This document shows positions 5,268-5,668 of a DNA stretch of 5,668 nt, one piece after another (within the stretch, counting starts at the first letter, position 1; each line of letters opens with the position of its first letter). Location of the stretch: IMG/VR virus record IMGVR_UViG_2917855067_000002; one strand, 5' to 3'. The notes below the pieces were generated by a model, which was not told the origin of the DNA, did not search any database, and saw nothing but the letters and a program-made list of their open reading frames with translations. This DNA comes from a virus (Duplodnaviria; Heunggongvirae; Uroviricota; Caudoviricetes). A program made the translations under genes and the position numbers.

Positions 5268-5302
5268 GCCGGATGCGGTGTAAACGCCTTATCCGGCCTA
5301 CG
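5268..5302. repeat. REP (repetitive extragenic palindromic) unit
   Basis: GCCGGATGCGGTGTAAACGCCTTATCCGGCCTACG matches the E. coli REP/PU consensus. Confidence 0.75.
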
Positions 5303-5316
5303 GTTCGATGCGATTT

Positions 5317-5352
5317 GTAGGTCGGATAAGATGCGCAAGCATCGCATCCGAC
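5317..5352. repeat. Second REP/PU unit in inverted orientation (BIME-like pair with the first)
   Basis: GTAGGTCGGATAAGATGCGCAAGCATCGCATCCGAC is palindromic and resembles an inverted REP variant. A third, partial unit (GCCGGATG, 5360..5367) is cut off by the IS end. Confidence 0.65.
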
Positions 5353-5367
5353 AATAAGTGCCGGATG

Positions 5368-5668
5368 TGTAGTGGCATAGTAAATTTGGCCACCTGAATA
5401 GAGGTGATATCATCACCTCATAGTCAAAACAGGTGACATTATGACCGGACGTAACAGACGCAATTTTAGCCCCGAGTTTCGCCTCGAGGCTGCCCAGCTT
5501 GTACTCGATCAGCATTACACCGTTGCCGCCGCTGCCACTGCGATGAATGTCGGCAAATCCACGATGGATAAATGGGTTCGACAACTGAAAGAAGAGCGAG
5601 CGGGAAAATCACCCCATAGCTTCACCCATGACACCTGAGCAGATTGAAATACGTGAGTTGAAGAAAAG
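5368..5668 (+). mobile_element. 5' end of a second IS3-family (IS911-like) copy in the same orientation as the first; left terminal inverted repeat at about 5368..5404; continues beyond the window
   Basis: TGTAGTGGCATAGTAAATTTGGCCACCTGAATAGAGG at 5368..5404 pairs as an imperfect inverted repeat with the right end at 245..281. It is followed by an OrfA-like gene. Confidence 0.85.
5441..5668 (+). pseudogene. IS3-family transposase OrfA (helix-turn-helix / leucine-zipper protein), IS911-like, with an apparent frameshift at about 5611..5616; the 3' end lies outside the window
   Basis: The 5441 frame gives [58 protein letters not shown] and then runs into a stop at 5636..5638. The conserved continuation [17 protein letters not shown] is in a different frame. 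The change of frame falls in a CCCC run. Confidence 0.8.

Follow-up and report, generated by a model that had tools for sequence, protein, structure and literature searches.

Downstream of ybhC in the DNA analyzed here, a REP unit is interrupted by the left end of an insertion sequence (IS) of the IS3 family. This family includes REP-targeting members, and one of them, IS1397, was reported to be REP-specific (PMC1525189). The locus therefore raises the question of whether the transposase of this element recognizes REP palindromes in the way described for IS1397 and ISKpn1, the junction being an outcome of such specificity, or whether an element with no particular liking for REPs happened to enter one. 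The initial annotation had found the junction consistent with REP-directed insertion. We examined the repeats, the element, the empty site and the flanks of other copies.

The contig and the repeats downstream of ybhC

The window, by which we mean the whole stretch of DNA that was analyzed, is contig PDIE01000021.1 of 5668 bp (assembly GCA_004745295.1). The PDIE01 accessions are those of strain E3356 of Escherichia cryptic clade II, which came from intertidal sediment; its single-end Ion Torrent reads were assembled with MIRA and SPAdes (PMC6639607). A clade II source is consistent with the only 97.2% identity of the ybhC end to its best E. coli match. Read from left to right, the contig consists of 281 nt from the end of the IS, a left prophage arm of lambdoid type, ybhC, a short BIME and the first 301 nt of the IS (Table 1). 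Both contig edges lie in one IS in identical orientation, and it was at two copies of this element that the assembly broke, which explains the 5.7-kb contig. The name ybhC is also carried by the annotated E. coli matches of this gene. More than 25,000 blocks of the assembly collection list the 356-aa Int sequence, and ten out of ten loci among the matches listed adjoin ybhC.

Table 1. Coordinates of the features in the 5668-bp window
Feature	Position	Strand	Remarks
IS right end, second copy, same orientation; contig starts inside IS	1..281	+	99.6% identity to reference positions 976-1256
IRR of second copy, ending ...TTGACCACTACA	about 246-281	+	sequence and alignment
Prophage left arm (lambdoid)	282-3960		site between ybhB and ybhC
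Theta-like gene of prophage, truncated	from 282		abuts left-hand IS copy
Invasin-D4-like ORF	755-1399		prophage left arm
xis	2566-2784		prophage left arm
int, 356-aa integrase	2762-3832		prophage left arm
ybhC, pectinesterase-like lipoprotein / putative acyl-CoA thioester hydrolase	3968..5251	+	NCBIfam NF007822, 732.7 bits (cut-off 436)
Complete Y-type REP, first BIME unit, GCCGGATGCGGTGTAAACGCCTTATCCGGCCTAC	5268..5301	+	one mismatch to Y-REP consensus
Complete Z2-type REP, inverted, GTAGGTCGGATAAGATGCGCAAGCATCGCATCCGAC	5317..5352	-	arms 5321-5334 and 5339-5352
Y-type REP, first 8 nt, GCCGGATG, cut by IS	5360..5367	+	empty-site comparison
IS left 301 nt, running to contig end	5368..5668	+	99.3% identity to reference positions 1-300
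IRL, 36-bp IS911-type terminal inverted repeat (TGTAGTGG...TGGCCAC...AGAG)	5368..5403	+	aligned with window IRR and with IS911 IRL and IRR

The BIME starts 16 nt downstream of the ybhC stop codon. Its first unit, a Y REP, is identical to 'REP31 (E. coli)' as printed in Tobes & Pareja save the one mismatched base, and no match to the Y-REP consensus arose in 200 shuffles of the window. The inverted-repeat arms of this unit occupy 5268-5281 and 5284-5297, and its predicted fold has an energy of -9.8 kcal/mol (z = -3.1). The inverted Z2 unit, which is kept in K-12 and CT02, folds with -11.6 kcal/mol (z = -4.9), a value equalled by no shuffle. Consensus, fold and shuffles thus agree with the initial annotation that two complete REP units stand here in opposite orientation; only its end point for the first unit, 5302, had to be corrected, being one base past the CTAC foot. 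The region 5256-5367 taken as a whole folds with -29.1 kcal/mol (z = -5.9), and an Rfam search of the window gave no match.

The two complete units make up one BIME-2 repeat, BIME-2 being defined by alternating Y and Z2 REPs and being variable in copy number at a locus (PMC3333891). The sequence TGCCGGATG is present at 5267-5275 and again at 5359-5367, with a spacing of exactly 92 nt. In common with BIME-2 of E. coli, the cluster displays the Y and Z2 consensus sequences, their alternation in inverted orientation, short linkers, tandem repetition with a 92-nt period and copy-number variation at the locus; the IS interruption is the sole difference. The repeat cluster of the window is a typical BIME-2. 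At least 40 REP-like matches are found in over half of E. coli genomes.

The number of repeats and the content of the spacer vary among strains. One or two Y-Z2 pairs are present at this locus in E. coli (K-12, CT02 and the loci L169-L178). The window has one pair before the IS junction (5252-5367) and L007, a second draft assembly, has three (4993-5287). The latter difference may reflect either BIME-2 variation or collapse of the 92-nt tandem repeats during assembly. Five clade II strains (L003, L004, L005, L008 and L010) encode an identical YbhC protein and have no BIME downstream of ybhC; a short hairpin and an AT-rich insert of about 1 kb are found there instead (L003 7285-8340), and the minus strand of the insert has an ORF of 217 aa that matched no Pfam family. 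These strains indicate that the ybhC-ybhJ spacer is a site of replacement besides repeat-number change.

The insertion sequence and the interrupted REP unit

The window holds just the first 301 and the last 281 nt of the IS, and the ORF and domain tests were made on a reference copy, the complete 1256-bp IS of E. coli H8 (L001:2501-3756). The H8 copy, which has a GAA duplication on its two sides, starts with TGTAGTGG, ends with CCACTACA and has TG...CA termini; at its right end the IS reads ...GGCCAGTTTTTGTTGACCACTACA. The reference OrfA is a 103-aa protein with an HTH_Tnp_1 domain (PF01527, 3.2e-14), and the overlapping OrfB contains the rve (DDE) domain (PF00665, 7.4e-29). The overlap of orfA and orfB is in the -1 frame and holds an A AAA AAG slippery site (TTAAAAAAGG); a programmed frameshift is given for this copy in the NCBI annotation. 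The terminal repeats are imperfect, 36 bp long and of the 5′-TG...CA-3′ type, and in the window they lie at 5368-5403 (IRL) and 246-281 (IRR). These features place the element in the IS911 group of the IS3 family. IS911 is described as having 36-bp IRs, using a -1 frameshift and forming a circle whose ends stand 3-4 bp apart (PMC2909936).

The likeness to IS911 is one of design. Both elements are of similar length (1256 vs 1249 bp), and with IS911 and ISEc52 the element shares the layout of the 36-bp imperfect IRs (TG.AGTGG ... TGGCCAC ... AGAG) and the overlap of orfA (HTH_Tnp_1) and orfB (rve, DDE) at A AAA AAG. A target duplication of 3 bp, occasionally 4 bp, is typical of the group, and some copies of the element have one of 3 bp. 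However, the match to these two elements is limited to 71.8-73.6% of nucleotides and to about 71% in OrfB. In particular, the full-length comparison with a Shigella flexneri IS911 copy gave 71.8%, and the closest named elements in E. coli are ISEc52 (73.6%) and IS911 (72.6%). The ISfinder convention requires about 95% nucleotide identity or more for two copies to count as one element, and IS911 itself is ruled out at 71.8-72.6%. The ends also differ, reading TGTAGTGG in the window IS and not TGAAGTGG. No element name is assigned by the NCBI pipeline, and the OrfA cluster is called just 'IS3 family transposase'. Low identity, different ends and lack of an NCBI name together indicate a distinct IS of the IS911 group. 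Copies with 92-99% identical OrfB are found in Buttiauxella, Rahnella, Yersinia, Tatumella, Cedecea, Serratia, Erwinia and other genera, and about 318 E. coli records carry the window IS at 95% identity or more. The element is an unnamed but widespread 1256-bp relative of IS911.

Over its 301 nt in the window, the copy interrupting the REP differs from the reference by one substitution and one inserted C. The insertion is in the C run at 5612-5615, which has four C residues compared with three in 36 other IS copies, and it shifts the frame of orfA (start at 5441, HTH_Tnp_1 type) after Ser-Pro, to give a 65-aa product. As the data are from Ion Torrent sequencing, the extra C is as likely a homopolymer error as a real mutation. 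An exact look-up of the frameshifted 65-aa OrfA returned no record, and that of the 90-aa OrfB fragment returned the window contig only. The sole promoter-like site in the window is within the IRL; IS911 has its own weak promoter in the IRL.

The boundary of the IS is at 5368, from which base on other copies align. The empty site in K-12 MG1655 and CT02 reads GCCGGATG^CTGCG(A/T)AAATGCCTTATCTGGCCTAC, the caret marking the position of the IS, and is an intact Y REP. Beyond it these genomes have another Z2 unit, a degenerate REP and then the end of ybhJ. Ten further E. coli loci (L169-L178) are also empty sites with an intact REP. The break in the window follows base 8 of the 34-nt Y unit and is located inside the 5′ arm of the predicted stem. 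This comparison, which had been proposed as a check, confirmed what the initial annotation said of the junction: the left end of an IS3-family element is inside a REP of the ybhC-downstream BIME, the third unit is cut after GCCGGATG, and the break is in the arm, outside the central loop.

An identical REP/IS junction is present in L007, which also encodes an identical YbhC protein, and the insertion is thus common to at least two strains. The junction was absent from all 5,426 complete E. coli genomes searched and from the viral contigs searched. A look-up with Int for the right junction or other copies yielded only E. coli loci with empty sites.

The ATG at 5365-5367 is most likely the left copy of a 3-bp target duplication. 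The contig ends inside the IS, short of the right junction, so that the second ATG and what is left of the REP behind the element are predictions. A simple insertion would give the IS right end followed by ATG, then C(T/G)GCGTAAA(C/T)GCCTTATC(C/T)GGCCTAC and then ybhJ.

Other insertion sites of the element

If the transposase recognized REPs, other copies should adjoin them as well. Copies were gathered from one genome per species, from metagenome contigs by the exact left-end sequence, and from E. coli genomes and plasmids. The left flanks, each of 60 nt, included those of the window IS, of close relatives and of eight IS911 sites (Shigella flexneri and E. coli). REP motifs were detected in a single one of 109 distinct left flanks, and this was the same ybhC site (L007). 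Restricting the set to elements with TGTAGTGG ends left 81 left flanks and 36 complete sites, no other of which is in a REP. Three of 67 distinct right flanks hold one REP-like word each. These three words were judged to be due to chance, and the one inspected (L159) is coding sequence. In addition, the seven left flanks out of 109 with the best hairpin energy were inspected by eye, and those of low folding energy proved to be coding sequence or other transposase genes. Two REP candidates, 'GCCGGAT' in L040 and 'GCCTGATG' in L159, were rejected on the same grounds.

The second copy in the contig gave the same answer. It abuts ACGTTGACC within the theta-like gene of the prophage, and there is no REP at this place. 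Thus neither the survey nor this second copy bore out REP-directed insertion of the IS1397/ISKpn1 kind, as initially suggested: no REP is present in the 108 other left flanks or in the 67 right flanks.

The position within the REP points in the same direction. In the published example from CFT073, IS1397 splits the apical loop of the REP as TGCCGGATGCGGCGTG/AACGCC (GGCGTG/AACGCC). The window IS, in contrast, splits the 5′ arm as TGCCGGATG/C, 7 nt upstream of the IS1397 position. The element resembles IS1397 and ISKpn1 in belonging to the IS3 family and in being located, within a BIME, in a Y REP of E. coli type; it is set apart by its site, since the arm and not the loop is split and there is no REP association elsewhere. 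Two marks of the IS1397/ISKpn1 type, an insertion point in the apical loop and the location of most or all copies inside REPs, are both lacking in the window IS. IS1397 is about 1.43 kb in size and closer to IS150, whereas the element described here is a 1256-bp relative of IS911. A distant search seeded with IS150 retrieved no element labelled IS1397.

About 1% of the E. coli genome consists of REPs (PMC3333891). One REP site in about 110 (approximately 0.9%) equals this share, and so there is no excess to explain. Occasional REP matches have also been tabulated for non-specific elements, namely IS5 (1 of 11), IS150 (1 of 2) and a K-12 transposase (1 of 7) (PMC1525189). The REP-motif test is a weak one at most of the sites surveyed, because other Enterobacterales and the unknown hosts of metagenome contigs have REPs unlike those of E. 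coli, and the independent sites in Escherichia are few: two in the contig, one E. coli chromosomal locus and one plasmid site. The E. coli chromosomal copies examined have a common right flank, lie beside IS1 and IS2 and show the GAA duplication; the six chromosomal loci sampled have a common left flank too and represent one locus. The plasmid copy is inserted in IS21 and has in turn received an IS30.

Many copies appear to have been rearranged. Among 36 complete copies, target duplications of 3 bp were found in 13 and of 2 bp in five, and 18 had none, which indicates that rearranged copies of the window IS are common. L102 and L091 have the right flank of the E. coli chromosomal locus and different left flanks, and the pairs L132/L138 and L102/L136 share one flank and differ in the other. 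The shared single flanks together with the missing duplications point to frequent recombination between copies.

Exactly where the second copy stands, sister clade II strains without it have a 46-bp solo remnant of an IS911-type IRR (L003 2013-2058; also L004), whose identity is 95.7% to the IS911 end and 86.7% to the window IS. The left side of the copy at 1-281 is outside the contig. The presence of two different IS911-group ends at a single position suggests either insertion targeted to an IR or replacement of one end by the other. No junction with the IRR remnant abutted to an IRL was seen among the viral contigs searched. In a metagenome contig (L104 2669-2755) a full IS copy stands directly against a 43-bp piece of the IS left end; the IRLs are in tandem, and an ATC duplication is present if one counts from the outer IRL. 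This arrangement is a hint that the element sometimes inserts beside its own ends.

Origin of the junction

Based on these observations, we consider it highly probable that the junction arose by an untargeted insertion of an IS911-group element into the BIME-2 of the ybhC-ybhJ spacer in Escherichia clade II, without REP specificity. The 1256-bp element, with its 36-bp imperfect ends, would use an OrfA/OrfAB transposase, the latter made by -1 frameshifting, and by homology to IS911 it is expected to move by a copy-out/paste-in route with a circular intermediate. Its point of entry would be in the 5′ arm of a Y-type REP, with GCCGGATG on one side and C on the other, and ATG was most likely duplicated. 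The insertion was probably retained because the BIME between the convergent genes ybhC and ybhJ is a harmless place, and it is probably a neutral and ordinary event.

Two other readings are unlikely, to a similar degree. The element could have a weak, non-exclusive preference for BIME-2, due to cruciform or bent DNA or to the binding of gyrase or Pol I, which would place copies there above chance without being specific. BIMEs do bind IHF, Pol I and gyrase (PMC3333891), the target region 5256-5367 is strongly structured, and the window left flank has the lowest folding energy among the 109 flanks. However, the single REP among about 110 sites matches the genomic share of REPs, and selection for harmless intergenic sites suffices to account for the position.

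Alternatively, the junction could be the endpoint of a rearrangement, either by recombination between IS copies or by an IS-mediated adjacent deletion or inversion, in which case the REP remainder and ybhJ would not be found beyond the IS. The contig is bounded at both ends by the same IS in the same orientation, the left-end copy is exactly where sister strains have the IS911-type IRR remnant, and with half of the complete copies lacking a duplication, and L132/L138 having one flank only in common, a rearranged copy is a live, if minor, alternative. Against it, the junction is identical in two assemblies; moreover, a rearrangement still needs an original insertion at the REP position, so that the description of the left junction stands either way.

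Less probable still is an IS911-group element with a second, weak target mode for structured or IR-like DNA. Loss of OrfA has been reported to switch IS911 to targeted insertion, and three observations led to this reading: one copy in a REP stem, another at the 46-bp IRR remnant, and the frameshifted orfA in the REP copy. If it were true, the contig would document a case in nature of the IS911 'target specificity switch', and IS3 elements would have in REP stems a target class so far unrecognised. Recognition of REP palindromes by the transposase is the least likely of all, for although the IS does lie within a REP that is intact in the empty site, the arm position, the REP-free flanks elsewhere and the kinship with IS911 speak against it.

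Overall, untargeted insertion of an IS911-group element accounts for an ordinary event that had been correctly described, the more interesting reading of which was not borne out, and nothing at this locus is new in kind. Past annotation, the finding is of little importance: it adds one more sporadic IS insertion in a BIME and identifies an unnamed relative of IS911. The lesson to be drawn is that an IS3-family end beside a REP fragment should not be taken as evidence that REPs are targeted.
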